DNA of 64,000 bases. Source: a virus. Numbering within the stretch: the first letter of the stretch is position 1; each line of letters begins with the position of its first letter. This document shows positions 7,157 through 37,208 of this stretch, one piece after another. The stretch spans positions 14,368 through 78,367 of IMG/VR virus record IMGVR_UViG_3300027763_000050. One strand, given 5' to 3'. Under the pieces are notes generated by a model. That model did not search any database and was not told the origin of the DNA. It saw nothing but the letters and a program-made list of their open reading frames with translations. A program made the translations under genes and the position numbers.

Positions 7157-7290
7157 AGTGCGGAAGCTGGGCGGAGGAATAGTAGCAACCTCACGCACGC
7201 CTGAGCATGCGCACCCCACATATTCGGCAAAAGGTGCTAGACGGCAGGCTTTATGGGTACTAAGTTGGCAGCTGCACGACGTAAGCCCTG

Positions 7291-7914
7291 ATGACAGCCA
7301 GGACACGGGAGGAGGGCAGAAGCCCGGAATGGACTGCAGAGCCGGCCACATCGCTACGGAAGCAGCGGTTCGCCGAAGCTGTGACGACAGCAAGCCAGCG
7401 GCGAGGGATCTCGTTACGGGCCTTGTGCGAGATGCTCGACATACAGAGCGGCACCATGACCAAATACACAAAGGCCGAGATCGACCCCTGGAGCACTAAG
7501 GCAAAAATTCAGGCGTTACTAGCTGAAGCGCTTGGGGTGTCGTTTGATGCGCTGATGAATTTCTATACGACGGGCGAGTTTGTGGCAGGGGTAACGCTTA
7601 GTTCCGTTGAGAGCTGGATTAGCCAGGAAGCGGCGCCCGAGGATTCGGCGAAGATATTGAAGGCATTAGCAGCGATGCACGAACGTTCGACTGTGAAAAC
7701 TACTGAGTTGTACGCATGGCCTAGGCAGGTGCTGGAGACATCGCCGTTTGATCGGAGCACTCTTGAGCTGATGGGCGTGACAGAAGAGAAAATCTCAGCT
7801 GTTGAGCGGGGCGGTGATGACGATGGGACAATGGCAAGGGTGATAGCGCACATACTCAATAAGAGCCAAGAAGAGGTATCCGAGGTGCTGGCTCAACGAA
7901 AGGAAATTAGTTGA
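7291..7914 (+). CDS. XRE-like helix-turn-helix transcription regulator
   Basis: RGISLRALCEMLDIQSGTMTKY...LAEALGVS HTH pattern; divergent from the primase gene. Confidence 0.7.
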   Translation: MTARTREEGRSPEWTAEPATSLRKQRFAEAVTTASQRRGISLRALCEMLDIQSGTMTKYTKAEIDPWSTKAKIQALLAEALGVSFDALMNFYTTGEFVAGVTLSSVESWISQEAAPEDSAKILKALAAMHERSTVKTTELYAWPRQVLETSPFDRSTLELMGVTEEKISAVERGGDDDGTMARVIAHILNKSQEEVSEVLAQRKEIS

Positions 7915-7980
7915 AGCACAGAGTTATAGACAATAAAAAACCCCAGCGCTAGGCCAGGGTTTGAGGTATTTGCGGGTAGA

Positions 7981-8037
7981 TCAGCAGCCTTTTTTGCCGC
8001 CGCCTTTTGCACCCTTGCCGCCTTTCTTGGTAGCCAT
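7981..8037 (-). CDS. 18-aa Lys/Gly peptide MATKKGGKGAKGGGKKGC
   Basis: Clean ATG..TGA mini-ORF followed by a hairpin and T-tract at ~7935-7965. Confidence 0.5.
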   Translation of the reverse strand: MATKKGGKGAKGGGKKGC

Positions 8038-8089
8038 GGTTGTGAATGAGAGTGAACTAATTAAGCATAAGAAAAAAGAGCAAGGACCA

Positions 8090-8851
8090 TTAACCTGCTG
8101 CGGCTAATTCTGTGTCCTTAGCAAGTTCTTCTGCTTCTCTGATTTCGTAGAACTTACGGACTTTCTGGAGGAACTTGGTTTTGTAGCGAGCCAGTTCGTC
8201 TCCATGGATAAAGAATTTCTGGGTGATGTGAGGAGTGCCGACCAGGATTTCAACTAGATCAATCTTTATGTCAAGGGTTTCTTCTAAAGCAAACGCATAG
8301 GCAGCGAGCTGGGTGGCGCACTTGGCGTATTTCATGTAACCACCAAAATACTGGCGGTTATCGTCTTTGGGGAAATGCCTGCAGTATGGCCCGGTACTGG
8401 TTTTGAGGTCAGAGAGAATTGTCAGTCCATTGCGGGTGCCGACAATATCAGGGCAGCCACAAAATTGGTACTTGTGAGACCAGATGCGTGAGATCCCGTC
8501 ATCACCAGTGCAGAATTTCCAGTTCGGCTTGAGTGGTTTTTCGGACCAGATGAAGCTGTCGTAAGGGTCCAGGTGTTGAGCAATGCCTTCCCAGTAAGGC
8601 ATGTAGTCTTCTGGAAGTTCGACGGGTAGGCCACGGATATAGTTTTCAACGGCAGCATGGACGGCGGATCCACGTTTGCTTGCCGCTTCTAGTCCACCTG
8701 GGTTCTTTTCATTCCAAGTTTGCAGTGCCTTCCTAGAGGATTCGCCCGCGGTTTTCGAAAGGATAGTGGTTACGGATGGGTAAGCTTTATCTGATTTGTC
8801 AGTACGGTAATAACGGAGGCCGTCCTGCTGGTATCGAGTGGGCAGGGCCAA
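8090..8851 (-). CDS. PD-(D/E)XK exonuclease
   Basis: PSVTTIL, RGSAVHxxxE, SEKPL, GCPDIV, DLKTS and QLAAY motifs. Confidence 0.85.
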   Translation of the reverse strand: MALPTRYQQDGLRYYRTDKSDKAYPSVTTILSKTAGESSRKALQTWNEKNPGGLEAASKRGSAVHAAVENYIRGLPVELPEDYMPYWEGIAQHLDPYDSFIWSEKPLKPNWKFCTGDDGISRIWSHKYQFCGCPDIVGTRNGLTILSDLKTSTGPYCRHFPKDDNRQYFGGYMKYAKCATQLAAYAFALEETLDIKIDLVEILVGTPHITQKFFIHGDELARYKTKFLQKVRKFYEIREAEELAKDTELAAAG

Positions 8852-10945: not shown

Positions 10946-11659
10946 TCAGCTCCAGTCAAAGGGCATGGTGTTGTCAAAAGTCTCGTGGTCGTAACCAGTT
11001 GCAGCGCTAGCAGAAGCAGGGTTATGTCCCCCGCTGCCGTTGCTGCCGCCACGTTTAAAGGTGCGAATTGTGCGGACCTTTAGCTCGTGGTACATCTTGT
11101 TGTCCCTGTTTGTGCGGACATCAAGGATTCCGTGGACTGCAACCAGCGATCCTTTGGGGGTCTCGATGAGCTTGTCCTTGGAGTAACCAAAAGCGCGAAT
11201 AGGCCACCAATCGGTAACCTCCTCTCGCTGAACGTACCTAGAAACGGCGAGGGTTGATCTCGCGGACTTGCCGGACTCAGAAGCAATAGGCTCGCGGGTT
11301 AGGCGACCAACGAGCACAACTTCATTGAGAAACTGCTCTGCTGTGGCGGGAACCAAGGACTGGCCGCGGACAATGGCCTGGTCGCCGCCTTCATCGAGAC
11401 CGATGGCACCGGAGGCAATGAATACCTGCCCGGTAGTGGAGCCAGCCAGAAGATCTCCCCCTGCTGAACCGGCCCGAATCTGCAGAATGACGGGGACGGG
11501 GGAATCGCCCGGAGTGGAGCAGATCGTTTCAAGCACTTCAAGCCCTTCTTTTGGGAGGGGCTGCTGGGCGGGCGGGGAACCCGTGATCAGGGTGATCGTT
11601 GCGAACGACATGCGACTGTCAAATGCATGCCAAGGTAGCCAGTTTGCAAGATCTGACAA
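10946..11659 (-). CDS. ssb: single-stranded DNA-binding protein with two OB folds
   Basis: NEVVLVGRLTREP...TLAVSR...TDWW...KGSLVAVHG SSB domain, preceded by a degenerate OB-like domain; acidic MPFDWS tail. Confidence 0.75.
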   Translation of the reverse strand: MSDLANWLPWHAFDSRMSFATITLITGSPPAQQPLPKEGLEVLETICSTPGDSPVPVILQIRAGSAGGDLLAGSTTGQVFIASGAIGLDEGGDQAIVRGQSLVPATAEQFLNEVVLVGRLTREPIASESGKSARSTLAVSRYVQREEVTDWWPIRAFGYSKDKLIETPKGSLVAVHGILDVRTNRDNKMYHELKVRTIRTFKRGGSNGSGGHNPASASAATGYDHETFDNTMPFDWS

Positions 11660-15750: not shown

Positions 15751-15954
15751 TCAGCCATTGGTGCCCTGCTGTGCTAAAGCGGAGTCACTCCGGATAAGGG
15801 GATCGTGCAGGGGGCAGCCACCGGCAATGAAGAACAACCCTTCCCGGTGGTAAGCGCCACGCCCATGGTGGTTATCCAAGACAGGGCACTTGCAGCCACG
15901 GGCAAGGGCCTCATCGCTGCCTGGGTTAGGGGGCATCTCACGTGCGTTAATCAT
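15751..15954 (-). CDS. small Cys/His-containing phage protein
   Basis: PNPGSDEA...GCKCPVLDN...CPLH motif. Confidence 0.55.
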   Translation of the reverse strand: MINAREMPPNPGSDEALARGCKCPVLDNHHGRGAYHREGLFFIAGGCPLHDPLIRSDSALAQQGTNG

Positions 15955-17889: not shown

Positions 17890-18700
17890 TGGAGGTTAAT
17901 TTTTGAGTAATTTAGCAATTGCTTGGCAGACTGTCAATTCCTACTTGGGTTCAAGGTCGCAGCCATCGCCAATGGGCGAATAATGCTCAGTAAGGGCCAG
18001 GAGTTCCCAGTAAATCCAGTCTGCATCGTGGGGGGTGAGGCGCAGGCTGACAGACAATTTGCGTTCGGACATGAAAGGAAGAAAAAGAAAGGACAAAGAA
18101 ATGCCGTTTCAGCAATTGATGAAACGACCAAGGAAAATGAAGGGCTTAGAAACCAGGGAGAGCCGGGCAGATGGCGCCAATGTGGCATTCAACGCCTGGA
18201 ATATCGGAGACCATCTCTTTGGCGTACTCCCTGGCGTCGCGATCGGATGTGGCTTGTATCAGGACGACTTGCCTAGAGACAATCTCAACGGCAAATGTCT
18301 TAGAGGGAAAGAGCACGACTGGTTGCAACAACGGGCTGAGGATCGGGGTTAGGTCCTCGCCCCGCCAAGGCGCTGACAAAGGAGCACAAGGCAAGAGAGA
18401 GAAGGCAGAATATGAGGGGCAAGAAGTTCATTGGAGAAAGCAAGAAGTAAGAAAAGCTAAAGCGGAATCATTCCGGCTTAGGTGATAGCAGTGGCTGGAC
18501 TGTGGAATTGGCCAAGGCAGTGGCGATGGTTTCAAGCCCCCTGCTGTCGTTCGTAGAAACGATGGCGTGAATGTAAAGACGAGTTTCGGGCGGCAAAAGG
18601 CTGAAGTCTTGGCGCAACATTTCACTGAGAGTTAAACCAATCGGCTGTAATGTCATGAGCAAAGGAAAGTAATTGGAGTTAACGGTGAAAGTGGTTGAAG

Positions 18701-23948: not shown

Positions 23949-24566
23949 TCAGTCGAACTGGGGCTCGAGGAATAGCGAGCGGCGAATGGAATTGATTGCA
24001 ATTTCAAGGTCATTGCGATCGGGGCCGATTGACTGCGAGATAACAGGACGGGCAGTTTGAGCGCGTAAAAATTGCGGATCGTCTAGCCCCGCAGTAAAGA
24101 GACGGAAAAAGGAAGTCTTATCTCCCTTGGTTGTTTGAAGTTTGATAATGCGCTCGGAAAGATTGTCAACAACAAGAAGCGCGCCGAGTAGGGTACGGGC
24201 GGGCTGGGTGTTAACTGGTCCGGCTGGTTTATTGGATTGGGCTGCTACACGAAGCAGGTAAGGAGTGGTTGGATCCGCTTGGTGTAAGCGCAATTCGAGG
24301 TAATCTCTGGGGCCGTACTCAGAGGCAGCTCCCCGTTTAATAAGTTGCAAGTCAAAGGGAGCGCCAATAATTGCCGTAATTATTCGATCGGGGTCAGGTC
24401 CAGAGGCAGCAGGCGGAGAGTCTCCGTATGAGTAAAGATCGCCGCCGAAAGAGAGGCCTATAACAACCGGTTTCGGCAAGACAGTCGCAGGGCGAATACC
24501 GGAATTGGGATCAACGTCTGGATCAATAAGCAGCTCAACAGGATCAAGTGGCGCGAGAGTTGTCAT
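23949..24566 (-). CDS. hypothetical protein
   Basis: Start MTTLAPL. Confidence 0.55.
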   Translation of the reverse strand: MTTLAPLDPVELLIDPDVDPNSGIRPATVLPKPVVIGLSFGGDLYSYGDSPPAASGPDPDRIITAIIGAPFDLQLIKRGAASEYGPRDYLELRLHQADPTTPYLLRVAAQSNKPAGPVNTQPARTLLGALLVVDNLSERIIKLQTTKGDKTSFFRLFTAGLDDPQFLRAQTARPVISQSIGPDRNDLEIAINSIRRSLFLEPQFD

Positions 24567-24792
24567 GGTTAACAAAGGAAACAGCACGGTTGAAAGACCC
24601 ATCAGAGACGAATCGTTGAGCCCCTCGGCGAAGATGGGCGCGGATATTACGAATGGAGCGAGTGGAAATACGCCTGCCAAAAGGAATGATCCCTTTGGTG
24701 CTAGTAATAGTGTGAGTAAGGCGCCAGTGTTTGGAGCCAGCGGTTATGTCGTAGCCGAGGGAGCGGGCTTCTTTGATGAGGTCAGCGGACAT
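24544..24792 (-). CDS. HicA-like RNase/toxin-fold protein
   Basis: ARSLGY...GSKHWRLTH...IIP...RSIRNIRAHLRR pattern. Confidence 0.6.
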   Translation of the reverse strand: MSADLIKEARSLGYDITAGSKHWRLTHTITSTKGIIPFGRRISTRSIRNIRAHLRRGAQRFVSDGSFNRAVSFVNHDNSRAT

Positions 24793-25549: not shown

Positions 25550-26161
25550 CTATTTGATTGACCAATTACGGCGTTTAACAAGTTCAGCTCCGGGGACTGT
25601 GGTGCCGGCTTTGATTGCAGCTTTGATTGCGGTCTTGTCTGGGGCGTATTTGATCGTCTCCCGCAACAGGTCATTGGGGATCAAGCCCTCGTCAACAACA
25701 TCGACGGCCTCGCTGACCCGTGATACAAGCTCATGGGTGGGGAAGGAGAAGCGGGTGTTGTCGGGGTTGAGTTTGAGAAGGATGTCGATCAGGTAGGTCT
25801 GAAGTTTTTCGGCGCGGCGTTGATCGGCTTTAGCGAGGGCGGCAAGACGGTCGGCCTCCTTGGCGCGGAAGTCAGCCTTGCCGTGAAGTGCGTCGATTAC
25901 ATGGCAGACCTGATCGGCCTTGGTTGTTAGGGCCGACCTGGCGGATTCATCGAGGGCGAGGAAGTGCTCAACCAGTCCCCGGGCTGTGTCCTGCTGTTCG
26001 GGGTCGTCGGAGTCAAGGAGTTCAGCGGCAAGGGCTAGCTCACCGCTTACCTCTTGGACTTGGATTGCGAGGTTGAACAGGGTCGGGGAAGAGCTCGAAG
26101 TGGTGGAGAGTTCCGTCTGGGCAGATGGGAGGCGGGTTGCCGTTGGCGAAGTTGTGGACAT
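25550..26161 (-). CDS. siphovirus Gp157 family protein
   Basis: Coiled coil KEADRLAAL..., then VDEGLIP...PDKTAIKAAIKAGTTVPGAEL. Confidence 0.85.
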   Translation of the reverse strand: MSTTSPTATRLPSAQTELSTTSSSSPTLFNLAIQVQEVSGELALAAELLDSDDPEQQDTARGLVEHFLALDESARSALTTKADQVCHVIDALHGKADFRAKEADRLAALAKADQRRAEKLQTYLIDILLKLNPDNTRFSFPTHELVSRVSEAVDVVDEGLIPNDLLRETIKYAPDKTAIKAAIKAGTTVPGAELVKRRNWSIK

Positions 26162-26444
26162 ACGTGTTGAGTGATTGAGGGCTGTCAAAGGCGATTGACC
26201 AAATGAAGTCAGGCTTTTCGCAGTGGACCAGCAGGTAATCGGGCGTGACTGCGGTGAGGGTGTAGCGGCCAACAACCGTGTCGGCGGGAAACGGTGCTAG
26301 CGCTGCCTTAAACCAGGCGACTAGGCGGAGGGCGAGGGGAAACCACATGAATGGCGCAAGCTGGAGCAAGCAGAGTATGGCAGCGAATAGCGTGAAAGGA
26401 AAGCCCCAGCATGCGGCTGCACACCAGGGCTTCAGGGATGGGTG

Positions 26445-26810
26445 TTATGCGACGGGGATAGCGAGCTTGGCTTCCTCTGCGGCACGGAGACCGGCGGCAG
26501 TGGCGTCCTTCTCGACCTTGGCCATCAGCGCTGCGGTGTAGACCTGCTTGGCGGAGATGGCGTGGACGGCGTTGCCCTGTTTGACGAGCTTGCCGAAATA
26601 GAGAGTGCCGGTGTTAGGGCACTCAAATGTGTCGGCGGGGTTATCAGCGCCAAGGGATGCAATGGCATGCTCGGATTTGAAGCCGGCACGAACAGCGGTT
26701 TCCCTGCGGGCAAGACCACCCTCGTCACGGGATACATATGCGAGCTCAACAGATGACCAATTGTCACCAGCGAATGCACGAAAACGGAGAGGACCAAGAG
26801 ATAGATTCAT
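26445..26810 (-). CDS. hypothetical protein preceded by a degenerate cassette element
   Basis: Start MNLSLG; element at 26838-26880. Confidence 0.55.
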   Translation of the reverse strand: MNLSLGPLRFRAFAGDNWSSVELAYVSRDEGGLARRETAVRAGFKSEHAIASLGADNPADTFECPNTGTLYFGKLVKQGNAVHAISAKQVYTAALMAKVEKDATAAGLRAAEEAKLAIPVA

Positions 26811-26837
26811 GTGATGCGCTGCCGTGAGTAAGGAAAT

Positions 26838-26880
26838 TGCACGGTTGAAAAGGCGCAAATAAAAAATCCCTAGACTGGGC
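26838..26880 (-). repeat. degenerate ninth copy of the early-gene cassette element
   Basis: Minus strand GGGATTTTTTATTTGCGCCTTTTCAACCGTGCAA versus consensus GGGATTTTCTTTTGCACTTCTTCAACAGTGCAA. Confidence 0.7.
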
Positions 26881-26899
26881 AAAGAGAGTTCACAAATTT

Positions 26900-27415
26900 A
26901 TGCTCGGCCAAAACAAATCAGGGCTGTCTGGCTTAGATCAGCGCATTGCAAAAGAAGCGGCAACCCGGGCCGATGCATATGGGCAAGCTGGCCGTGCTGC
27001 CAGATTGGAAGAACTAAAAGGACGCGACAACGAAAGCCTTGCCGCCCAACTGCGTGGTGCATTGCAGAACAAGGGTGACAGTTACCGTACGCAGGTCATG
27101 CTTGGCGGCGACGGTGATGTGCCCATGGACGCAATGACAGGCAGGAACGGGCTAGATCAGGCCGAGTTAGTGAAATTCCTAGCTGGCCTTGCTCCCGCTG
27201 AGCGTCAAGACCTTTTAGCCCGGATGTCAGGTCAGCAGACTGGTGTGCTGGAAGGTATCAATCGGATGCTGGCTGGTGATAATCAAGTTGGCAAGATCAG
27301 CCGGGGCGCTGCGATAGGCGGCATTGGTGTTGGCACTGGGCTTGGTTTGACTGCTGCCGGCAAGGGATTGATTGACTTGATGGAATATTTACAGGAAGGC
27401 CAAGGGGCGCAATAA
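26900..27415 (+). CDS. Gly/Ala-rich protein, virion-like, in a rightward island
   Basis: Gly-zipper C-terminus; TAGACT at 26871. Confidence 0.6.
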   Translation: MLGQNKSGLSGLDQRIAKEAATRADAYGQAGRAARLEELKGRDNESLAAQLRGALQNKGDSYRTQVMLGGDGDVPMDAMTGRNGLDQAELVKFLAGLAPAERQDLLARMSGQQTGVLEGINRMLAGDNQVGKISRGAAIGGIGVGTGLGLTAAGKGLIDLMEYLQEGQGAQ

Positions 27416-27606
27416 TGCTGGATGAGGTCGTGATTGTGGACTTTAAGCCCACCGAACGAGAGTGCGAATTGTGGTGGAAAGTCCGCCGCTCGCTAGAAGC
27501 CAATGGAAAAACGTCCTGCCATTACTACACAATGGCGCTGGAATATACCGGCAAGTGCGGCGGGCTTGAGAGTAAAGTTAAAGCAGAGGTTGGCAATGGA
27601 TCCTAG
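27415..27606 (+). CDS. small hypothetical protein
   Basis: TAATG stop/start coupling. Confidence 0.5.
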   Translation: MLDEVVIVDFKPTERECELWWKVRRSLEANGKTSCHYYTMALEYTGKCGGLESKVKAEVGNGS

Positions 27607-28225
27607 GTTTGCTGGCGACATCTTTAGTGATGAATGGGATCGCGTTGGCGGCCAAGGTATAAACGATCCGCCGTCCAAGTTCCGCCGGCAAGGTGGCCCA
27701 GAACAAGTATCTATTGAGTCAGGAAAAACCTGGAGCAAGTCATTCCCTGCAGATGCAGTCAAAGAAAATCTTGAGGACTCGGCGAGAGAGGCCGGGTATG
27801 TAGGCGCAGGCAGACAAGTAATAAATGCGCTGACTAACGGGTCGTTGAACTTTAAAGACGATACTGGCAGCATTGGCGTTTATCCTGGCGGTTTTAGTGT
27901 GCGCAGCAAGAATGGCTGGGGTGTAAATGTTGATGTGCCAAGTCAGTCAGCAAACGTAAACGTCGGCAACGTAAATATTCAGGGTGGATTTGGCGCCAAC
28001 CCCAACGTCAAGATTGGGTTACAATTCCCTGCCCCAAGCGTCGACCAAGGTGGCGGCAATCAAATGGTTAATCCCAGCCATCAGCTTGATCAACAGTTGA
28101 GGCAGTACGAACCAAGGCAAAAGGCAAAAGCGGTTGATACTGGCTGGCAATTGAGGGATGAGCTGGAGTCACGCAGAAGTAATCAAGGTTTACTAGAAAA
28201 ATTGATCGGGCGCGGGCTTATTTGA
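27596..28225 (+). CDS. hypothetical protein (G/N/Q-rich)
   Basis: Start MDPRFAG. Confidence 0.55.
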   Translation: MDPRFAGDIFSDEWDRVGGQGINDPPSKFRRQGGPEQVSIESGKTWSKSFPADAVKENLEDSAREAGYVGAGRQVINALTNGSLNFKDDTGSIGVYPGGFSVRSKNGWGVNVDVPSQSANVNVGNVNIQGGFGANPNVKIGLQFPAPSVDQGGGNQMVNPSHQLDQQLRQYEPRQKAKAVDTGWQLRDELESRRSNQGLLEKLIGRGLI

Positions 28226-28415
28226 GCAACTGTACTGGTCTGCGACGACACGGCAGATCCAGGGTTTGTCCGGGGGACTCGCCCAGACGAATGCGTTGCT
28301 TGCCCGCATTGTGACATGGCCGGGCCCAAGGTACATGGCAATACAGGAAAGAGAAGAGCAGACAAAGTTAATCATGTGAAAGTGTTGAGTAAGATGTGGT
28401 AAGTGTTAAGCGGTA

Positions 28416-28619
28416 ATGGAACTTAGATTTGCTGGCACGGAGCTCGACAAGGAGCTAGGCCTCGGGTTTCAAGGGCTTGGGGATTTGAGTAAGTTAATCC
28501 CTCGCCAAAGAATTGAGCATCCTCGGCTGCCGGGGTTAACACTTGGCGATGATTCAGTGCCCGAGAACGCAGGGCCGGGTTATGACGGTACGACGCCTGG
28601 ATTTACTTACGGGGCTTAG
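28416..28619 (+). CDS. small hypothetical protein
   Basis: Start MELRFAG, similar to the start of the preceding gene. Confidence 0.45.
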   Translation: MELRFAGTELDKELGLGFQGLGDLSKLIPRQRIEHPRLPGLTLGDDSVPENAGPGYDGTTPGFTYGA

Positions 28620-28629
28620 GACAACCGGC

Positions 28630-28815
28630 TTAGTCGAGATCGACGCTGGTATTGAAGTCTTGCTCAGGTTGCGCTCCGTCGTAAAGCTCAACAACAAGGT
28701 CTCCGTCAAAGCCCTGGCTGAGGATAAGTTCATCGCCGGCCACCCATCCGAGCTGATCGAGAATGCCTTTGGGTAAGGGGAGGAATCCGTCGTCGTCAAC
28801 AACCAGAGTTGGCAT
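28630..28815 (-). CDS. AbrB/MazE/SpoVT-type DNA-binding protein
   Basis: VDDDGFLPLPKGILDQLGWVAGDELIL pattern. Confidence 0.75.
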   Translation of the reverse strand: MPTLVVDDDGFLPLPKGILDQLGWVAGDELILSQGFDGDLVVELYDGAQPEQDFNTSVDLD

Positions 28816-28844
28816 GTTGCAAGATGCATATTGCACAAGGTAAC

Positions 28845-28880
28845 AAGAAAAAAACCCCGCCCAGAAAACTCCGAGCGGGG
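28845..28880 (-). terminator. intrinsic terminator
   Basis: CCCCGCTCGGA-GTTT-TCTGGGCGGGG followed by TTTTTTT. Confidence 0.75.
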
Positions 28881-28886
28881 CATGGA

Positions 28887-29105
28887 TCAGACGGGCTCGA
28901 GCATGAACTCGCGCATGAAGTCTTCCTCGCGGTCGGCAAGGAAATCAAGGAGGTCAGCCTTAGTGAACTCGTCTTCCTCGATCACCATCGGTAAGAATCC
29001 GAATTGGGACTCGAGCTGAAAGCCAACCTCGCCAATGAATGCGGGGCTGCCTTCGTAAAAAACTTCCTGACCATTGGGCCAGGCGGTAAGACGGAGAAAT
29101 GTCAT
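28887..29105 (-). CDS. small acidic early protein
   Basis: ATGA overlap with the upstream ORF. Confidence 0.55.
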   Translation of the reverse strand: MTFLRLTAWPNGQEVFYEGSPAFIGEVGFQLESQFGFLPMVIEEDEFTKADLLDFLADREEDFMREFMLEPV

Positions 29106-29248
29106 CGTGCTACTCCACCGAAGCGTGTGGTGAAGTAGTCGTTGCTGAAGGAGCGGCCTCTTTGCTGCGTAGAGACATAGCTCTCGGTCAGCATGGGACG
29201 TGGGCGGCGGCGTGCGCGGTCAATGTGAGCTGCTTGCAGGAGCGTCAT
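29102..29248 (-). CDS. small early protein (cassette 1)
   Basis: Start MTLLQAA, 20 nt downstream of the element at 29269. Confidence 0.55.
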   Translation of the reverse strand: MTLLQAAHIDRARRRPRPMLTESYVSTQQRGRSFSNDYFTTRFGGVAR

Positions 29249-29346
29249 GGTCAAAGGAAATAAAGAACTGCACTGTTGAAAGAGTGCAAAGAAAAACCCT
29301 CCACCCCTGGGCCAGAGGAGTGGAGGGAGATTGCGGCTAGTTGGGA

Positions 29347-29787
29347 TCAGGCTTCTGGCTCGGCGACAGGGGCGGTGCGTTCCAGCGGTGAAAGCGAAGT
29401 AAGCACCCACTCGGAACAGCGGCGACCGTCTTGGGTGTGATAGGTGGACTCGAACGCGGTGATGGCGAGGAGAAACTCACCGGCTGCGTGAAGTTCAGCG
29501 AGCTTGGTGGCAAGGGGGCCGTTGCCGTTGTCATAGGCGACGAGGTTCTTGGCTTGCCCGTAGGTGCGGCTGCCATCTCGCTGGCGCTGTCCTTTCTGGG
29601 CGGAAACCTTGGTGAAGGTTTTGCCAGTCGGGGTTTGGCCGGTGAAAATCTCGCGTTGAATCCAGAGGACCTGGCAGAGTTCGTCTCTGCGTTCTTCGGC
29701 AGGGGCAGTAGGCGCGGGTGTTGCAGCGAGCGCGGCTTCGAGTTCGATAACGCGCTGCTGGAGATCGGCTTTGGTCATGAGAGCCAT
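29347..29787 (-). CDS. divergent SSB-like OB-fold protein (cassette 2)
   Basis: QTPTGKTF..VS...RDG...NLVAYD...LAxxLAE...G...Y..QDGRR pattern loosely follows SSB. Confidence 0.45.
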   Translation of the reverse strand: MALMTKADLQQRVIELEAALAATPAPTAPAEERRDELCQVLWIQREIFTGQTPTGKTFTKVSAQKGQRQRDGSRTYGQAKNLVAYDNGNGPLATKLAELHAAGEFLLAITAFESTYHTQDGRRCSEWVLTSLSPLERTAPVAEPEA

Positions 29788-29896
29788 GGAAGAACCGGGT
29801 GATGTGCCCGGGGGAAAGGGAAATTGCACTGTTGAAAAAGTGCGTAAAAAGCCCCACGTCTGGGGCCGAGGAATTAGACAGCTGCAGGCGAAGGAG

Positions 29897-30250
29897 TCAG
29901 AAGGGGCGGCCGTCGAGGTAGTAGATAAAGGCGCTCGGTTTCATGCGCCCCTGCATGAGGAGATCAGCGTTGCGGCGGGTACTCGCGAGATGGTCAACAA
30001 AGGGCTCGCGAATGGAGAGATAGCGAGCGGTGATGTCGTTGGCGGCAAGGGTTATGTATTCATCGCGGTTGGAGACGAGGTCCGTGATGAAATTGTTAGC
30101 GGCGTGAATGATCTTGCCGAGGATGTATCCGGCCACATAGAGGGCAGTTATAGCGGTGACCAGGTAGCGGGCAATGGTCTTGATAGCTGGTCCCCAGTCG
30201 GCTTTGGCGATCGAGGTTGCTTTGGCGGCGATGGCGTTGAAGTTTGGCAT
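29897..30250 (-). CDS. membrane-associated early protein (cassette 3)
   Basis: Start MPNFNAI; one hydrophobic segment. Confidence 0.6.
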   Translation of the reverse strand: MPNFNAIAAKATSIAKADWGPAIKTIARYLVTAITALYVAGYILGKIIHAANNFITDLVSNRDEYITLAANDITARYLSIREPFVDHLASTRRNADLLMQGRMKPSAFIYYLDGRPF

Positions 30251-30352
30251 TGGCGGTAGTTGGGTGGTGTACCCAGGGGAAAGGGATTGCACTGTTGAAG
30301 AAGTGCAAAAGAAAATCCCCTCACCCCGGCGTGGAGTGAAGGGATGATGCGG

Positions 30353-30544
30353 TCACAAAACCATTTCAATCGAAGATTCCATCATCTCAGCAAAGCTAAG
30401 AATCTGAATTCCAACGGTACCTTGGACTCCATTATTCAATTCAGGAGAATTGTGCATAAAGTCAAGCTGTGCGGCTTCTACTAATGCTTCTTCTTTGCAT
30501 TCGCACAAACAAGCCTGTTGTCCGTTAGCAATTACAAAGTACAC
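30353..30544 (-). CDS. small early protein (cassette 4)
   Basis: GTG start VYFVIANG; stop lies just before the next element. Confidence 0.5.
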   Translation of the reverse strand: MYFVIANGQQACLCECKEEALVEAAQLDFMHNSPELNNGVQGTVGIQILSFAEMMESSIEMVL

Positions 30545-30651
30545 GTTAATGCTCCGTTGTGCGGTACCTATCTCCGCTGGGGTATTGCACTGTTGAAGAA
30601 GTGCAAAAGAAAATCCCCTCACCCCGGCGTGGAGTGAAGGGATGATGCGGG

Positions 30652-30783
30652 TCAAAGCATGCGAGCGCGGGTGCCGCATGTGGCGTAGAAGGCAATCATG
30701 TTCTGCGCCTCCGCAAGGGTGTTGAAGGACTGAGTCCTCCAGGCGCCGTTGCTGTAGGGCGGTTGAAAGGTGATCTTGAACAT
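30652..30783 (-). CDS. 43-aa cyanophage-type early protein (cassette 5)
   Basis: Not in ORF track. MFKITFQPPYSNGAWRTQSFNTLAEAQNMIAFYATCGTRARML; ATG abuts the element. Confidence 0.75.
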   Translation of the reverse strand: MFKITFQPPYSNGAWRTQSFNTLAEAQNMIAFYATCGTRARML

Positions 30784-30857
30784 TGCACTGTTGAAGAAGT
30801 ACAAAAGAAAATCCCCTCACCCCGGCGTGGAGTGAAGGGACTCAGGAGCGGGGTAGA

Positions 30858-31040
30858 TCAGTAGCGGTAGCCGTAGGATTTGCAGAACTCGATATGAGCC
30901 TGGTGCTTGTCTGCGGGCCAGTCGTGGTGGGCACATTGGGCAGCGGTGGCGGAATCGAGAGCTTTGACGCCTGCATTTGCGACGGCGGATACCGCTGCTG
31001 CTAGTGCCAGGGAGATCGCAGCGAAAAGGAGCTTGGACAT
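30858..31040 (-). CDS. small secreted/membrane early protein (cassette 6)
   Basis: Signal-like N-terminus; CxxHDWP...HxxFC. Confidence 0.7.
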   Translation of the reverse strand: MSKLLFAAISLALAAAVSAVANAGVKALDSATAAQCAHHDWPADKHQAHIEFCKSYGYRY

Positions 31041-31115
31041 TTGCACTGTTGAAGAAGTACAAAAGAAAATCCCTCCACCCCGGGAAGGAGTGAAGGGACG
31101 GTGCTGTTAGCCAGG

Positions 31116-31286
31116 TCAGCCCGGTGTCCCAGGCAGCCATTCGGGGTAGCTGGCGTCCCCGGCAAGGTAATCAAGGAAGCGGCAGTACCGATCCATGCCT
31201 TCGTCTTCCGTCTCCGCCTTGGCCCAAAGTTCCTCGAGTGCTGCCCAGTCGGGCTCGTCGATGAATTGGCTGTTTGAACTGGACAT
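31116..31286 (-). CDS. small acidic early protein (cassette 7)
   Basis: MSSSNSQF...; ATG abuts the element. Confidence 0.65.
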   Translation of the reverse strand: MSSSNSQFIDEPDWAALEELWAKAETEDEGMDRYCRFLDYLAGDASYPEWLPGTPG

Positions 31287-31358
31287 TGCACTGTTGAAAA
31301 AGTACAAAAGAAAATCCCCTCACCCGGCGTGGAGTGAAGGGATGGTGTGGCGTGGAAT

Positions 31359-31532
31359 TTAGACGCGGTAATGGGGGAGGTTGGTGTCGTTTGCCGCCGC
31401 CGCCTGGAGTTGTGCTTCTGCTGTGTGTATTAAGTGCATGAGTAAATCCATGCGCTCGTGAAGTTCAGCGAGCTCTTGATGGTAGTGCTCAATGTTGAAA
31501 CGGAGACAATCAGCGCTGGAAAGAACGAGCAT
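31359..31532 (-). CDS. 57-aa coiled-coil early protein (cassette 8, first gene of the leftward arm)
   Basis: Not in ORF track. MLVLSSADCLRFNIEHYHQELAELHERMDLLMHLIHTAEAQLQAAAANDTNLPHYRV; ATG abuts the element. Confidence 0.65.
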   Translation of the reverse strand: MLVLSSADCLRFNIEHYHQELAELHERMDLLMHLIHTAEAQLQAAAANDTNLPHYRV

Positions 31533-31667
31533 TGCACTGTTGAAAAAGTACAGAGCTAAGATTTAACTTACCGGCGCGGCGCGTAGATCATCAATGTGCA
31601 GAGGATATGCAGAGGAAACCTACACAAATAGGACGCAATCGGAGGGGCAGAGTTGTAAATGGGGGTC

Positions 31668-31676
31668 ATTATAGCA
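31668..31676 (-). promoter_or_regulatory. extended -10 sigma70 promoter for the leftward early arm
   Basis: Minus strand TGcTATAAT, ~135 nt upstream of the first early ATG; no clear -35. Confidence 0.6.
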
Positions 31677-32098
31677 CATCTCGAAAAGTTTTACGCGGCG
31701 AGCGTCGCGCCCGCGAGAATAATTAATGATAGCGGCGGAGCAAAAGTATAGGTTCTTAATTAACAACAACCGTGTTATTACTATATAACACTAACTCAGA
31801 CTGAAAACGTGATTTTCCGTCGATTCTACGTGCGCGATAGGATCCATAGCACCTTTGCGTATTCTGATCTATTGAATTACGCGATACGAATTCAGATCAG
31901 ACATATGTACGCAGTAGCCTACATTTAACTCGCGTATTCTTTCGCATACCTGCTACAACGCAGCACTTCACATGCTACGCGCGCGGCTTCCTAAGCACCC
32001 TTAAGCACTAGCAACAGCACATACGCAGTCTTAAGCATCCCCTGCTCTTGTGCCCCTCTCTCCTGTGCAGGGCAGTCTTCTCATGCTTTCGTACGTTC

Positions 32099-32196
32099 CC
32101 TCTCATCAGCGCGGGGCAGGTGACTCACTCGCTCCTCAACTGCTCAGGGCATGCTTCCTTCGCTCTCTCATACGCCTCTCATCAGCGCGGGGCAGG
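32099..32196. repeat. 22-bp direct repeat in the central non-coding region
   Basis: CCTCTCATCAGCGCGGGGCAGG at 32099-32120 and 32175-32196. Confidence 0.85.
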
Positions 32197-32469
32197 GGTC
32201 TGTGCTACAGAGCCTCTCGCGTTCTCAGGCGCACTCGCACTCCTCGCTATGACAGGGGCGGTGCGTACCTTTTTTTTGTCTGGCAACCATCGGAACTTGA
32301 CGGGGGTGTTTGATGTATTTCGCGCCGCCAAAAGTAAAAACGCCTTTCTATAGAGCCGCGCCACCGGGTACGAAATTGCGTATTTTTTGTACCCTATTTC
32401 AAAACACCTAGATACCGCCAGGTGTTTCGTTCTTTCTAAATTAGAGAAACGGAATAAATTTTCAAAAAA

Positions 32470-34758
32470 ATGGAGTCGCGGGAAAGTAAGCTCGGACGTC
32501 GCCTATCTCGCGAAGAATTCGAAGCATTACAGGCAGCTAAACAACAAGTTCAAGGCGCTCAATCCGCAATCGGTGGTATCGGTCAAATGCGCCCCGGCCT
32601 TGGCTTGCTGCCTCCCGCTGGCGAGCGTCGCTCAGAGTTAAGCGTCGCGGGTCTGCCGCCCCCGGGAACTTCGACTGAAAGCATCGATGGATATATCAAA
32701 GGTATGTACCCAGGTAGAGGAGAAGAAACGATTGCGCGACTAAGGGAGAGGGTTCCTTCCCGGAAGAAAGATGACGAACCTATAAGCGCAACAGACGTCA
32801 TGATGCAGGTAAGGACAATCCCTGGCGCTTCCATCTATGACCAAGGAAAAGACGTAAGCGGTTTTGTGCCAAGGCTTGAGCGAGCTGTCCAAGAGAACGC
32901 CGAAGGAAAGCAAGAACGAATGGAGGCAAGGCAGCGAGAATTGTCCGATCAACTTGCGGCCGAAGTTGCAGCCAATCCCGAGCTCGCTGAATTTCTTGGC
33001 CAAAAAAACGGCATGTTCACTCTGGACAGGGAAACCGGCACTGCTGACCTGTCGCGATCCAATAACGACAAATACGGCGAATTTGCTTCCGAAGACCCAA
33101 GCGGATACAAGTATTCCTACCGCGGCGGCTCAGCTCCTTCTGAGTTGAACCCGTACGGCGGGATAGAAGTAACCGGCACAAACCGTCGCGATGTAAGGAT
33201 TTACCCGGGCGATCCTGTGCTGACCCGTACAGGAGATCAAGATGACACGGCCTCCTTCCGGCGAGAGGAAGAGGTAACGCTTGGGAAACTAGCGCAAGAG
33301 CTTTCGAATGAATACAAGACTGAATCAATTACCCGTGGGGGATTGGTAAGGCTTCGGGATAAGGGCCTATTTAATCCGCTGCCAGTGGCACAGCGGGATC
33401 GGTCGTTGGTGGGCCATATCAGCCGGCTAGAGAGAGCTTCCAACCTCTCTGAAGACCAAGTCAGCCTGCTTGGACTAGACCCAAACATGCGGGTATTGAA
33501 TCCAAACTCCATGGTTCGGGTGCCTGTCCCTGTTTTTGCCGTAACAAGGGTTGATCAAAATACTGGTGAAAGGGTGCCGGTTATTCAGCAAGAGACCGGT
33601 GAACCCTTATATAGAGTCGGCGAGCCTGTTAACCGAGATCTGGACGCAATTCGCGACGAGCTACGTCCTTTTGTCCCCTCCGCTGCAGGGCAATTCAGTC
33701 AAGATGAGGTTCTGCGCCGTGGGTCAGAAAGTGCGGACCGTGAAAACGCTGCAAACGAACAGGCTCGGCAAAATAAACGGGCGGCGCTGCGAGGAAGAGC
33801 TGCTGAACAAGGCGGTACCGGCAGCTTCCAAGACCTCCTAAAGGAGATTGTGGCCGGTGGTTTCATGGAGTCCGCCCCTGTCATATCTCCCGAGGCGGTA
33901 GATCGCCGTATCGCAAAGCTCAAGGCAGGTCTTATCGCTAGGGCTGGAGAGGCTGGACCCATGATCTCGCAGGAACTTGGCGAAAATCGGACCCTAGATG
34001 AGCTGATTCGAGCAAGTTCCGCTCCACGGGGCCGCGAGGTGGACCTGTTCAGCGAAGAACCAATCGATGAAGCCCTGCTCCGAGCTCATAATCCACTGGA
34101 AGCGGACGAACAGCTCGGCGCCGAAATCCAGGGCTTGACCGCTAGAGGCTCCGGATTGGATACCTCGGAAGAAAATATGGCCAATTGGGCAGATATTGAC
34201 TACTCACCAGAGAGCCGCGGTTACCAGATCGAGCAATTCGACCGTGACCCAGCCCGCCAGCCATGGAGGGAAACCTTTGTTGACCCCATTACCGGTAATC
34301 CTTACCCCAATCCACTGAAAAACCGCATTAACGCCCTTGAAGAGACAGCGCAAAAGCTGAATCCCCTTGCTGACGCCGCTCAAGTCGACTTGATGACCAA
34401 GGCAATGGAGCAGGAAATGGCTTACCGGCAGCGGATTGGCGCTCCCCGCTCCCAGGAGTCCATGGCCGACGCACGCACCACCGCACAGTCAGCGCTCAAT
34501 GCCCCCGCGAGCGCCTCTGTGGCCCCCCAGGAAGTTGGTCAAGAGCTGTTCGCCCGCCCAGTTCGCACCTGGACCCCACCCAGGGAGCCCGATCAACTGC
34601 TGGCTGACTCAATTCGCTCTAAATACCAAAGGACTGTCCCAGGAATGCGCGAGTTCTCCTACACAGGCCTTGCTGACGCACTTGGGGGAGAGGTCGGCGA
34701 CCCCCAACAGGAAGCAGCCATGAAGTTTTTAGCTGAGCGCATCGCTCGGAGGCGCTGA
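32470..34758 (+). CDS. large hypothetical protein, possible internal virion protein
   Basis: 762-aa charged ORF, first gene of the rightward arm; no motif recognised. Confidence 0.7.
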   Translation: MESRESKLGRRLSREEFEALQAAKQQVQGAQSAIGGIGQMRPGLGLLPPAGERRSELSVAGLPPPGTSTESIDGYIKGMYPGRGEETIARLRERVPSRKKDDEPISATDVMMQVRTIPGASIYDQGKDVSGFVPRLERAVQENAEGKQERMEARQRELSDQLAAEVAANPELAEFLGQKNGMFTLDRETGTADLSRSNNDKYGEFASEDPSGYKYSYRGGSAPSELNPYGGIEVTGTNRRDVRIYPGDPVLTRTGDQDDTASFRREEEVTLGKLAQELSNEYKTESITRGGLVRLRDKGLFNPLPVAQRDRSLVGHISRLERASNLSEDQVSLLGLDPNMRVLNPNSMVRVPVPVFAVTRVDQNTGERVPVIQQETGEPLYRVGEPVNRDLDAIRDELRPFVPSAAGQFSQDEVLRRGSESADRENAANEQARQNKRAALRGRAAEQGGTGSFQDLLKEIVAGGFMESAPVISPEAVDRRIAKLKAGLIARAGEAGPMISQELGENRTLDELIRASSAPRGREVDLFSEEPIDEALLRAHNPLEADEQLGAEIQGLTARGSGLDTSEENMANWADIDYSPESRGYQIEQFDRDPARQPWRETFVDPITGNPYPNPLKNRINALEETAQKLNPLADAAQVDLMTKAMEQEMAYRQRIGAPRSQESMADARTTAQSALNAPASASVAPQEVGQELFARPVRTWTPPREPDQLLADSIRSKYQRTVPGMREFSYTGLADALGGEVGDPQQEAAMKFLAERIARRR

Positions 34759-34760
34759 TC

Positions 34761-35006
34761 ATGGCGGATGAACAGGAAAAACGGGGGAAAGCCAAGGATT
34801 TGGCTAACTCTTTTAAGCGAATGAGCAAACCTGCCAGCCAAGGCGGTACCGGGGGCACCTTCTCCGCCGCTGCCACCAAGGCCGGATACCCTGACACCCC
34901 GAAAGGGCGCTCTCAGTTTGCAGAAGCCGTGCTTAAAGAGAAAGATAAGTACAGCGAAAAGATGGTCAAGAAAGCCAACTTCTATAAGAACGTCATCAGT
35001 AAATAA
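34761..35006 (+). CDS. small basic protein
   Basis: GTFSAAATKAG...FAEAVL...KKANFYKN. Confidence 0.65.
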   Translation: MADEQEKRGKAKDLANSFKRMSKPASQGGTGGTFSAAATKAGYPDTPKGRSQFAEAVLKEKDKYSEKMVKKANFYKNVISK

Positions 35007-35041
35007 TTCGCTAGAATAAGCGCACGGCTGGGATTACGTAA

Positions 35042-35320
35042 GTGGCTGGCGGGCGCGTACAAGATACCACTAGGCCCTCGCTGAATCAGTCGATCCGGCA
35101 GGCCCTGCAGAATAAGCGCGAACGAGCAGAAGTACCTGTTGTTTTTGGCATGGAAAAAGGCTCACCCCAGAGATTTGCGGGTGAAGAACTTAAAGTTGCC
35201 GGCATGAATGGACAGTTTGGCGCTAAAACTGAAGATCCCGCCTCGCAGCCATACTTCAAGAAGTTCGTATCTCGCTATGTTGCGGGAGAAGGTCTACTTA
35301 ACGGTAACGGGGCAGCGTAA
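35042..35320 (+). CDS. hypothetical protein
   Basis: TAGAAT at 35012; coupled to the next gene. Confidence 0.55.
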   Translation: MAGGRVQDTTRPSLNQSIRQALQNKRERAEVPVVFGMEKGSPQRFAGEELKVAGMNGQFGAKTEDPASQPYFKKFVSRYVAGEGLLNGNGAA

Positions 35321-35853
35321 TGAGATTCTCTGGTGAAAAAGTTCTCGGCCTGTTAAGTAAGATTGCGACCGGTGGCCGAGCGATGAGCAAGGGAGAAGCA
35401 GCCCTTGAGTTCGGGCCAGATATTGTCATGGCGGCGCTTACCGCTGCGACCTTGCCCGAGGGCGTGGATCCAATGCTGCGAGCAGGGGCTGGGGCCGAGG
35501 ATTTAGCGTACGGTCTGGGCGGCTCATTGGCCGGTCGATTCCTCGGTAGGCGGGGGGCTGCTCTATTTAGGCCGGGTGACGACATGGCGGCCAGGGGCAT
35601 AGAGCAGGTTGGCGGGATGCTGGGCGGTATTGTCCCAAGCATGATGGCGCCTCGACCCATACTGAACCAAGCAATTGAGCAGGCCTACAGCAGGCAAGGG
35701 CAAAGGGAAACGGCTAAGAAGAATGAGCAGCAGGGGGAGAGCAATGAAGCGCTGGCGGATGCTCTTTTAAGGCTTGGCTACGTAAGCGCCTCTGGTGATG
35801 TGGGAGTTTCACCGGAAGTTATCGCTCGAGGTGGTATTGGGACTATCGTCTGA
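35320..35853 (+). CDS. Gly/Ala-rich putative internal virion/ejection protein
   Basis: Gly-zipper helices; overlapping stop/start. Confidence 0.55.
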   Translation: MRFSGEKVLGLLSKIATGGRAMSKGEAALEFGPDIVMAALTAATLPEGVDPMLRAGAGAEDLAYGLGGSLAGRFLGRRGAALFRPGDDMAARGIEQVGGMLGGIVPSMMAPRPILNQAIEQAYSRQGQRETAKKNEQQGESNEALADALLRLGYVSASGDVGVSPEVIARGGIGTIV

Positions 35854-37208
35854 TGGCGAACGATTTCCGGGGAATAAGGCGGGCGTTTTTAGGCGGGATC
35901 AACGCTGATCCAGGCGCTTACGGCAAATGGGAACAGAAAGAGCAGACCTTAGCCGGTAATGATTACGAGCCGAGCCCGAGTGAGTACATGCTCGGACGTT
36001 CGCCAATAGTTGACTATGTCCGCAGGCTGCTACCCGGCAGAGTTTCAGACGTTAAGCCAGTAGTAGAAAGCTGGGGATTGCGCTCACCTGCAATGCCAGG
36101 TTTTATATCCAACTTGCCACTGGGCGGATATTCTGGCAAAGAAAAACAAAGCTACCTAGAGGCGCGTGACAACGACAAATTACTAAAGGAAAGCACGATT
36201 CGCCCGGGCTTCATGCCAACCGGCGAGTTTGGCGAAGAAGAAAAGATTAACCTCTTAAAAGACAAGACATCCCCCCCGGGACCGTCGATACTCCCTGGCA
36301 ACAAGGAGATAGACGTAGACGGAGCAACTCAGGCAGCAGCACAGGCCGCGGGTGTGGCGGCAAGTGATTTTGTTGGCGATGGTGCTCGAAATATTTGGTG
36401 GTTCCTTAACGCGCCACAAGCAATTGCCCAGGTCGCCACTTTTGCGGGCCTGCATGGGGCGGGCAAGGGAGTTGCGCCGGATGAGTATGGACCAATTCTC
36501 AAGCGCGGTGGGCATCGTTTCGCTGCTGCACTGCCGGCAACGATTGCGGTCTCGTTTGGTATCGGTAGTGCCATGCGTCAACCGGGTTACGGAGCCGCGG
36601 TGCCGGACGAGGATTTGCGAACCAAGGCAGCGGACCCTGTTACTGAATTGGGCGCAAGATACTTCTTGGGTAGAAGTGGCAATTTGCTGCCCTATGAGCA
36701 ATTTAAGTTAGAGCGCCCTGACGTATCGGAAGAGGAGTATCAGGAGTACAAGCGCTTCCTTCACGGCAACAAGTCACCATTAAAGGCGACGCTCGAGGGG
36801 ATCAACGGCCCAGAGGTGAATTTCATGGGCAAGAGCGTTCCGGTTGTGACAACGATCCTACCCGTAATAGCGTCAATTGTTGGCAGTCGTTACGGGGCAA
36901 GAAAGGCCGCAGAAAGACTTGCCAATGGCAGCGAGGGAAATCAATTTGTTAAGTCTATGCTTGTCAGGGAAGAGGTAAAAGAAATTGAGCGTGACCTAGA
37001 AAGGGACAAGCCGGAGTACACCAGGGAAGATTTAGTAGCAGCGCAGGCGGAGTCACTTGGATTGCACCGCGACATACAAAATGAAGTCCTAAAAAGCGCT
37101 TTGACTTACGGTTCTGGCTCTCTTGTTACTACGGCCGTATTAGGATCGGCACTAGAAGAAGTCCGCCGTTCAATCGGCCCAATGGCTGAACTGGAGCCCA
37201 AGAAATGA
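35853..37208 (+). CDS. putative internal virion protein with hydrophobic helices
   Basis: 451 aa, tiled operon, several amphipathic/TM-like segments. Confidence 0.6.
   Translation: MANDFRGIRRAFLGGINADPGAYGKWEQKEQTLAGNDYEPSPSEYMLGRSPIVDYVRRLLPGRVSDVKPVVESWGLRSPAMPGFISNLPLGGYSGKEKQSYLEARDNDKLLKESTIRPGFMPTGEFGEEEKINLLKDKTSPPGPSILPGNKEIDVDGATQAAAQAAGVAASDFVGDGARNIWWFLNAPQAIAQVATFAGLHGAGKGVAPDEYGPILKRGGHRFAAALPATIAVSFGIGSAMRQPGYGAAVPDEDLRTKAADPVTELGARYFLGRSGNLLPYEQFKLERPDVSEEEYQEYKRFLHGNKSPLKATLEGINGPEVNFMGKSVPVVTTILPVIASIVGSRYGARKAAERLANGSEGNQFVKSMLVREEVKEIERDLERDKPEYTREDLVAAQAESLGLHRDIQNEVLKSALTYGSGSLVTTAVLGSALEEVRRSIGPMAELEPKK

Follow-up and report, generated by a model that had tools for sequence, protein, structure and literature searches.

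A repeated terminator and box element at the heads of early transcription units in a cyanophage lineage related to S-EIV1

The early hairpin promoters of coliphage N4 are read by the virion RNA polymerase with the help of a single-stranded DNA-binding protein (SSB), and the stoperators of L5 and the cluster A mycobacteriophages are short asymmetric sites, present in many intergenic copies and in one orientation to transcription in a temperate phage. For antitermination, the system of comparison is the ops element for RfaH. In T4-type phages, the terminator/promoter joints known as promoter-early stem-loops (PeSLs) are repeated, and insertions and deletions (indels) end in the repeats (PMC2839356, PMC4122927). 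Families of intergenic repeats upstream of genes, which turned out to be promoters, are also described for halovirus HF2 (PMC8707807), which the locus considered here resembles in its intergenic repeats upstream of genes. This locus lies in a stretch of viral DNA of 64,000 nucleotides (the window), comprising bases 14368-78367 of the 78,367-bp IMG/VR record IMGVR_UViG_3300027763_000050, whose estimated completeness is 91%. In its leftward early region a terminator hairpin, a T-run and a short conserved sequence (the box) recur ahead of one small gene after another. The element is genuine, regulatory and far from random in its occurrence, and a whole phage lineage has conserved it; its box is a strand-specific, partly dyad-symmetric 22-nt signal at the heads of early and middle transcription units. 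The reading favoured here, to which we give an even chance, is that of a PeSL-like terminator/promoter composite with a non-canonical early promoter giving rise to leaderless or near-leaderless mRNAs.

As in the PeSLs, a small composite terminator/promoter motif is repeated among small variable early open reading frames (ORFs), in the order stem-loop, start signal, ORF, and indels between close relatives (here the genomes G003 and G014) end in the repeats. In contrast to the PeSLs, however, the putative promoter half is not of the host sigma70 type but a contiguous, partly palindromic 22-nt box, the lineage is that of S-EIV1-like cyanophages and not T4-like, and the box also heads conserved multi-gene operons, with the ATG often abutting it. 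No description of the element was found in the literature covered, which did not extend to the S-EIV1 genome paper; a preprint on a related uncultured lineage (10.1101/325100) does not mention promoters or motifs.

The element in the window and in related phages

The sequence TTCAACAGTGCA was found in eight exact copies, all on the minus strand, within 29269-31544 (at 29269, 29825, 30288, 30586, 30784, 31042, 31287 and 31533). When up to one mismatch was allowed, 10 matches were obtained against 0.33 expected, and no shuffle reached 10. Counted from c1 at 31533 to c8 at 29269, the copies are spaced 246, 245, 258, 198, 298, 463 and 556 nt apart, each interval holding one ORF (57, 56, 60, 43, 63, 117 and 146 aa for c1 to c7). 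The initial annotation, made from the window alone, had described eight copies spaced 198-556 nt apart with one ORF between consecutive copies, and the exact minus-strand matches and the ORF list agree with it. Its statement that the ATG follows at once in three copies and after 1 nt in a fourth was likewise confirmed, the start codon abutting the box in c1, c2 and c4 and standing off by a 1-nt gap in c3. The number eight holds for exact copies, but a degenerate ninth copy, TTCAACCGTGCA at 26838-26849, scored 27.6 bits in the site model, and a possible tenth, TTCAACCGTGCT at 24583-24594, scored only 4 bits and is doubtful. In the 78-kb genome as a whole, this model (R1, built from 50 sites) picked out nine significant sites and no more, each of them on the minus strand, and a position weight matrix scan of the window returned nine sites on the minus strand and none on the plus strand. 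An exact scan of IMG/VR for ACTYYTTCAACAGTGCA gave 36 single scattered hits, read as chance, and no second array. The copies and the units to which they belong are as follows.

26838..31552, minus strand: whole array of nine boxes, at the head of leftward early transcription and covering its first ~4.7 kb
31533..31552, minus strand: box c1 (TGTACTTTTTCAACAGTGCA), without an upstream terminator; ATG at 31532
31287..31343, minus strand: unit c2, with terminator 31314-31343, T-run and box 31287-31306
31042..31099, minus strand: unit c3, with terminator 31069-31099 and box 31042-31061; ATG 1 nt further
30784..30843, minus strand: unit c4, with terminator 30809-30843 and box 30784-30803
30586..30643, minus strand: unit c5, with terminator 30613-30643 and box 30586-30605, then a 41-nt leader containing GGAG and a GTG start after it
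30288..30345, minus strand: unit c6, with terminator 30315-30345 and box 30288-30307, then a 37-nt leader
29825..29867, minus strand: unit c7, with a distinct terminator 29850-29867 and box CGCACTTTTTCAACAGTGCA at 29825-29844, then a 37-nt leader
29269..29327, minus strand: unit c8, with terminator 29297-29327 and box 29269-29288
26838..26885, minus strand: unit 9, with a short hairpin, T-run and degenerate box TTGCGCCTTTTCAACCGTGCA, upstream of the conserved F0 gene
24583..24594, minus strand: possible tenth copy TTCAACCGTGCT, before the ATG at 24566 or within an ORF starting at 24602

Copies c2-c6 and c8 are preceded by terminator-like hairpins of 12-15 pairs with loops of 4-7 nt and a following T-run, and the array hairpins have predicted energies of -19 to -34 kcal/mol (z -3.4 to -6.0). 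Across 87 such terminator hairpins the sense strand was 4.0 kcal/mol more stable than the antisense strand (75 versus 11, p=8e-14), and the stems contain 2.1 G-U pairs each, which together form the signature expected of structure selected in RNA. As a GC-rich stem-loop with a U-run and a sense-strand folding bias were both found, the first hairpin is a genuine Rho-independent terminator that closes the transcript of the preceding small gene. A terminator upstream of each gene, which had seemed hard to explain, is therefore simply that of the gene before. An Rfam search of 26000-32600 gave only two sub-threshold small RNA hits, both at the terminator at 28854. The earlier proposal that the two parts of the element are separable was upheld, as box c7 sits behind a terminator unlike those of the other copies and box c1 has none, making the box an independent unit.

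More than 100 IMG/VR contigs encode portal proteins 63-75% identical to that of this phage. Their early regions, those of relatives with 63-71% portal identity included, share one layout: a terminator, a T-run, the 22-nt box TG-N6-YTCANCAGTGCA-WT and a start codon. By column, the box consists of TG, six variable bases of which the third is usually C, YTCANC(A/G)GTGCA and (T/A)T. After removal of duplicate genomes, 114 sites remained, spread over 14 genome stretches; every one is on the strand of the early genes, and the other strand of these stretches gave none. A hairpin (dG <= -8) and a T-run of at least five T lie directly upstream of 96 of them, the ATG lies at most 6 nt from the box at 47/110 sites, and box and start codon are separated by -1 to 69 nt, in nearly all cases by 0-60. 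The box heads orthologous genes (families F18, F3, F2, F7, F0 and F6) in different genomes as well as ORFan cassettes, and also multi-gene operons of 4-5 kb, while the site model finds none before the late rightward (plus-strand) genes; it thus marks a class of transcription units. The vertical inheritance of the box before orthologous genes and 4-5 kb operons also means that it is not specific to cassettes, as had been supposed.

Sub-lineages with a variant core (GTACA, or CTGCA/ATGCA) and matching left arms were observed in G007 (L138), G022 (L139), G016:C34 (L137) and G019 (L140); these are natural specificity variants that could help to identify the protein reading the box. In S-EIV1 itself the box was not found, different small repeats being present instead. 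S-EIV1 has a two-copy intergenic element of its own (L037 7467-7500 and 7761-7794), in which GATCCGTCAAAGCGGGT precedes a hairpin whose loop is GTGCAAAC; the two stems differ by compensatory changes (CCGGTAG/CTACCGG versus GGCTAGG/CCTAGCC).

Exchange of cassettes at the element was mapped between G003 and G014, the other pairs of relatives being too diverged in DNA. These two genomes are 96-98% identical across the array and differ at three places, all three with breakpoints at elements: an ORF replacement running from directly after ...CAGTGCATT to the next stop codon and terminator, an extra cassette between duplicated elements, and an extra cassette between duplicated terminators. The comparison with PeSLs and the notion of a recombination joint, both put forward in the initial annotation, are supported by these three replacements or insertions. 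In the phage of the window, exchange is inferred from the composite of about 50-60 nt, which is almost identical in c2-c6; such a near-identical sequence repeated within one genome would provide homology for the gain, loss and replacement of ORFan genes.

Dyad symmetry of the box and its candidate roles

The stems had been interpreted as structure in the mRNA, or in that DNA strand, on the basis of G-U pairing. Folding of the box region, taken to begin at the TG and to extend 26 nt past the core, was compared between the two strands and gave -10.24 kcal/mol for the sense and -10.27 kcal/mol for the antisense strand (56 versus 55 sites, p=0.63), with equal G-U fractions. As this equality is unlike the strong asymmetry of the terminators, it suggests a signal at the DNA rather than the RNA level; the G-U argument stands for the terminator stems and fails for the second hairpin, which is not borne out as an mRNA structure. 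In the helix drawn earlier (TGYACT/AGTGCA), three of the six pairs are near-invariant in relatives; in the remaining three, pairing is lost at 20-54% of sites, and the 5' arm is mismatched at about half of the sites. GTGCA finds its partner upstream at 43 sites and downstream at 59, and at 9 sites it is unpaired within an enclosing stem. The left arm nevertheless tracks the core, with T at 13/14 sites having a GTACA core versus 30/99 having a GTGCA core, CTGCA cores are paired with TGCAG left arms, and double changes affecting both arms occur in the GTACA and CTGCA sub-lineages. We read the second element as dyad symmetry on DNA recognised by a protein, or as local hairpin potential, and not as a conserved RNA hairpin.

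In the favoured mechanism, the terminator hairpin and T-run end the transcript of the preceding small gene, and the box would serve as an early-class promoter, or as a promoter with an overlapping operator, recognised in double-stranded DNA by a host RNA polymerase that carries, or is aided by, some specificity factor. Transcription would begin in or right at the 3' end of the box, genes with an ATG 0-6 nt past it would yield leaderless or near-leaderless mRNAs, and the composite of ~60 nt would at the same time supply homology for cassette gain, loss and replacement. With eight strong terminators one behind the other, there must be re-initiation or antitermination and, as nothing but the box lies between the T-run and the ATG in c2-c4, re-initiation at the box is the simplest reading. 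Of the roles offered in the initial annotation, one of promoter type fits best. Furthermore, the start of c3 is fixed by a conserved signal peptide which, together with the short distance from box to ATG at so many sites, places the mRNA 5' end in or before the box. Upstream of c1 the following features were found.

31668..31676, minus strand: extended -10 sigma70-like promoter TGcTATAAT, ~125 nt upstream of c1 (consensus match only)
31780..31807, minus strand: second sigma70-like candidate TTTTCA-16-TATAGT, upstream of c1 (consensus match from the scan)
31594..31615, minus strand: CCTCTGCAYAT x2 as a tandem direct repeat, downstream of the sigma70-like promoter and upstream of box c1

On the strength of these consensus matches, the two sigma70-like promoters could supply immediate-early transcription, which would also keep readings at the RNA level alive. 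AT-rich relatives carry two to three tandem GATGTTAGT repeats at the place equivalent to 31594-31615, and the tandem repeat is a possible operator.

Several observations weigh against the promoter reading. Neither the 50-site nor the 114-site alignment gave a sigma70-type -10/-35 in any register, and column inspection showed that the positions equivalent to A-11 and T-7 are not kept. A six-frame Pfam search of the whole genome revealed no sigma region 2 or 4, NusG or XRE-type helix-turn-helix (HTH); a six-frame search for a T7-type polymerase (PF00940) was also negative, the same search having matched no control genome either; and the DxDGD motif was absent in all frames. Box c1, lying downstream of the sigma70-like promoters, could be part of a 5' untranslated region (5' UTR), GTGCA is base-paired in 102/114 predicted folds, and the flanking stems that enclose the core co-vary in the F0 and F7 orthologues, as would be compatible with a hairpin. 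The claim that the genes have neither a Shine-Dalgarno sequence nor an evident sigma70 promoter was retained in part: the sigma70 scan gave no such site at the boxes, but c5 has a GGAG 8 nt upstream of its GTG start and two sigma70-like promoters precede c1. The large ORFs without an assigned function had no family match, and a very divergent phage-encoded polymerase is possible.

Candidate recognition sequences were judged by eye against known consensus sequences. Rejected on spacing or key bases were sigma70 (several registers, extended -10 included), sigma54 (-24/-12), extracytoplasmic function (ECF) sigma factors (AAC...CGTC), NtcA (GTA-N8-TAC), the cyanobacterial LexA box, CRP-type sites and the AR9 late promoter (AACA-N6-TW).

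A role of the box in RNA, as a 5' UTR hairpin or protein site for processing, 5'-end protection or translational control of a read-through polycistron, would explain the frequent pairing of GTGCA and the covarying stems, and is consistent with a box region that folds beyond shuffled sequence (mean z -1.5), with an ATG 0-6 nt past the box at 43% of sites, and with a 7-bp stem that takes in the A of the AUG in c2 and c4. The polycistron would originate at the sigma70-like promoters, the nearer of which lies ~125 nt upstream of c1. This reading is nevertheless considered unlikely: both strands fold equally well where the terminators at the same loci are strongly asymmetric, the partner of the core shifts between upstream arm, downstream arm and loop and is often missing in AT-rich relatives, the eight serial terminators would leave scarcely any read-through RNA, the distance from box to start is variable, and late operons have no box. 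Rather doubtful, too, is an undescribed transcription specificity, in which a phage-encoded factor or polymerase would read the 22-bp box and start at or next to the AUG, possibly helped by the SSB-like product of gene c7. The N4 system offers the parallel of a short, hairpin-capable conserved sequence before early genes, with the SSB-like c7 among these. It differs, however, in that no virion- or T7-type RNA polymerase gene was detected here, the loop is of 8 nt as against 3 in N4, the hairpin is not conserved in relatives, and a start 10-11 nt past the hairpin would fall inside the ORFs.

Recognition on DNA could also be that of an operator, bound by a repressor or early shut-off protein and acting as a multi-copy oriented roadblock through which the early genes are silenced, be it in the prophage or towards the end of infection. 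The genome encodes a large serine integrase (G000 6717-8096, PHROGs hits; outside the window and ~34 kb from the array) and the phage is therefore probably temperate, the many copies are intergenic and all oriented, the folding lacks the asymmetry of RNA and fits recognition at the DNA level, and a partial dyad whose arms change together in sub-lineages suggests one protein reading both halves. The stoperators are likewise multi-copy, oriented, short intergenic sites, here of a probably temperate phage. The boxes, however, occur only in the early/middle class, directly past terminators and before start codons, and no HTH or repressor gene was recognised. Such an operator is judged very unlikely, as every gene behind a terminator would be left promoterless, the left half-site is weak (C in place of the needed A at 54/114 sites) and the half-site centres lie ~15 bp apart. 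That the serial terminators need some way through would be met by an antitermination reloading site (ops/RfaH-like or a Q-type pause) re-arming the polymerase after each of them, and the contiguous strand-specific 12-nt core in each leader, with the first copy in a leader downstream of the sigma70-like promoters, is in keeping with this. Known processive antiterminators, however, load once per operon, the box comes after each terminator and not ahead of the first, and the six-frame search gave no NusG/RfaH-like gene, so that we consider this explanation highly improbable. There is, finally, hardly any likelihood that the element functions chiefly in mobility or site-specific recombination (attC- or MITE-like) with no role in expression. 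Near-identical copies within a genome and the breakpoints at elements in G003/G014 would agree with it, but the breakpoints also fit ordinary homologous exchange between repeats, the core is conserved at orthologous positions where terminators differ, it is always oriented with the gene between terminator and ATG, and the only recombinase found is the serine integrase far from the array. Integron attC arrays share the single small ORFs with imperfect palindromes between them; the analogy, which had been raised in the initial annotation, finds no support: every gene here carries a terminator and a start signal, the box, of its own, and the sites are vertically inherited with orthologues. Only a serine integrase was identified by PHROGs, no search aimed at a tyrosine IntI having been made.

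Genes of the array, genomic setting and significance

The genes headed by the boxes, numbered as the boxes are, were identified as follows.

31359..31532, minus strand: cassette gene c1, 57 aa, ORFan
31116..31286, minus strand: cassette gene c2, 56 aa, ORFan
30858..31040, minus strand: gene c3, 60 aa, with a signal peptide, conserved both in relatives and in S-EIV1
30652..30783, minus strand: cassette gene c4, 43 aa, ORFan
30353..30544, minus strand: cassette gene c5, 63 aa, ORFan, with a leader resembling an S-EIV1 leader
29897..30250, minus strand: cassette gene c6, 117 aa, ORFan
29347..29787, minus strand: gene c7, 146 aa, family F2, a coiled coil and SSB-like OB fold, conserved in relatives
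28854..29248, minus strand: last unit, two overlapping ORFs at 29102-29248 (48 aa) and 28887-29105 (72 aa)
26445..26810, minus strand: F0 gene, 121 aa, first gene of a multi-gene unit and most conserved early protein

For 7/10 array genes a homologue is absent in relatives. The last unit ends in the terminator at 28854-28881, beyond which there is no box. The F0 protein is 44-54% identical across six relatives, with one at 33%, and its orthologues are likewise preceded by a box; its structure model was poor (pLDDT 64.6), and an Atlas search for F0 gave no match. The OB fold of c7 matched bacterial SSBs in Foldseek (E about 1e-6), its orthologues in relatives end in an acidic, SSB-tip-like ...E(V/P)xF tail, and a second SSB-like gene is located at 10946-11611. 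The c5 leader CCCCAGCGGAGATAGGTACCGCACAACGGAG (30545-30585, minus strand) is nearly identical to the S-EIV1 leader CCCCAGCGGAGATGGGTACCGCACAACAGGAG (L037 about 7723-7760, minus strand), in contrast to a protein identity of at most 46% between the two phages, and the shared leader comprises a small hairpin and then a Shine-Dalgarno-like GGAG. A second motif, TTCTTTCGCCCCGG-loop-CCGG, was seen in the long leaders that follow the box in F2/F3 genes of L120, L122, L123, L124 and L133 and at 29788-29824 of the window, the hairpin stems of these leaders varying from genome to genome.

Among the proteins encoded in the window are a large terminase, a major head protein, a primase-helicase, an endolysin-like protein and large virion proteins, and the 745-aa portal-like protein is 46% identical to the portal of Synechococcus phage S-EIV1, with which gene order is collinear. 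As a portal scan of prokaryote genomes matched only contigs of metagenome-assembled genomes (MAGs), read as mis-binned phage, a host was not assigned. No tRNA genes were found in the window, megablast of 28000-36000 against GenBank phages gave zero matches, and almost none of the early and middle proteins scanned match a known family. The small leftward early genes and a rightward block point away from each other, with the junction at about 31.6-32.5 kb. The 762-aa neighbour at 32470-34758 was rejected as a polymerase, being charged, apparently disordered and without Pfam, PHROGs or Atlas relatives; its sole relative elsewhere is a 99% identical copy.

The ~900 nt separating the two divergent blocks (31553-32469) contain no long ORF, the longest in any frame being of ~100 aa. 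This gap, a possible site of small RNAs, of an origin or of a regulatory switch, contains an inverted repeat TCTGATCT...AGATCAGA at about 31866-31903, two copies of a 27-nt repeat (32099 and 32175) and, on the plus strand, terminator-like hairpins at about 32255-32280 and 32402-32436. Two plus-strand ORFs without family hits (26900-27415, 171 aa; 27503-28225, 240 aa), which lie between the array and the F0 unit, oppose the direction of the early region; they might constitute a lysogeny or moron module, and a sigma70-like site lies near them at 27388-27416. The leftward region also contains a 31-nt repeat (84% identical) at 15773-15803 and 18456-18486, which includes the small palindrome GCGGAGTCACTCCGG.

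For the cosmopolitan and largely uncharacterised lineage of cyanophages that bear it, the box is a sharp marker of early and middle units throughout, with which start codons and timing classes can be assigned in contigs from metagenomes. It also offers a specific DNA bait for its reader; neither a sigma70 pattern nor a phage polymerase or sigma factor explains it. The element extends to an unrelated phage group the PeSL idea of terminator/promoter joints that drive the shuffling of small host-takeover genes and, if transcription does start at the ATG, it would represent a natural system of leaderless early mRNAs in cyanobacteria.

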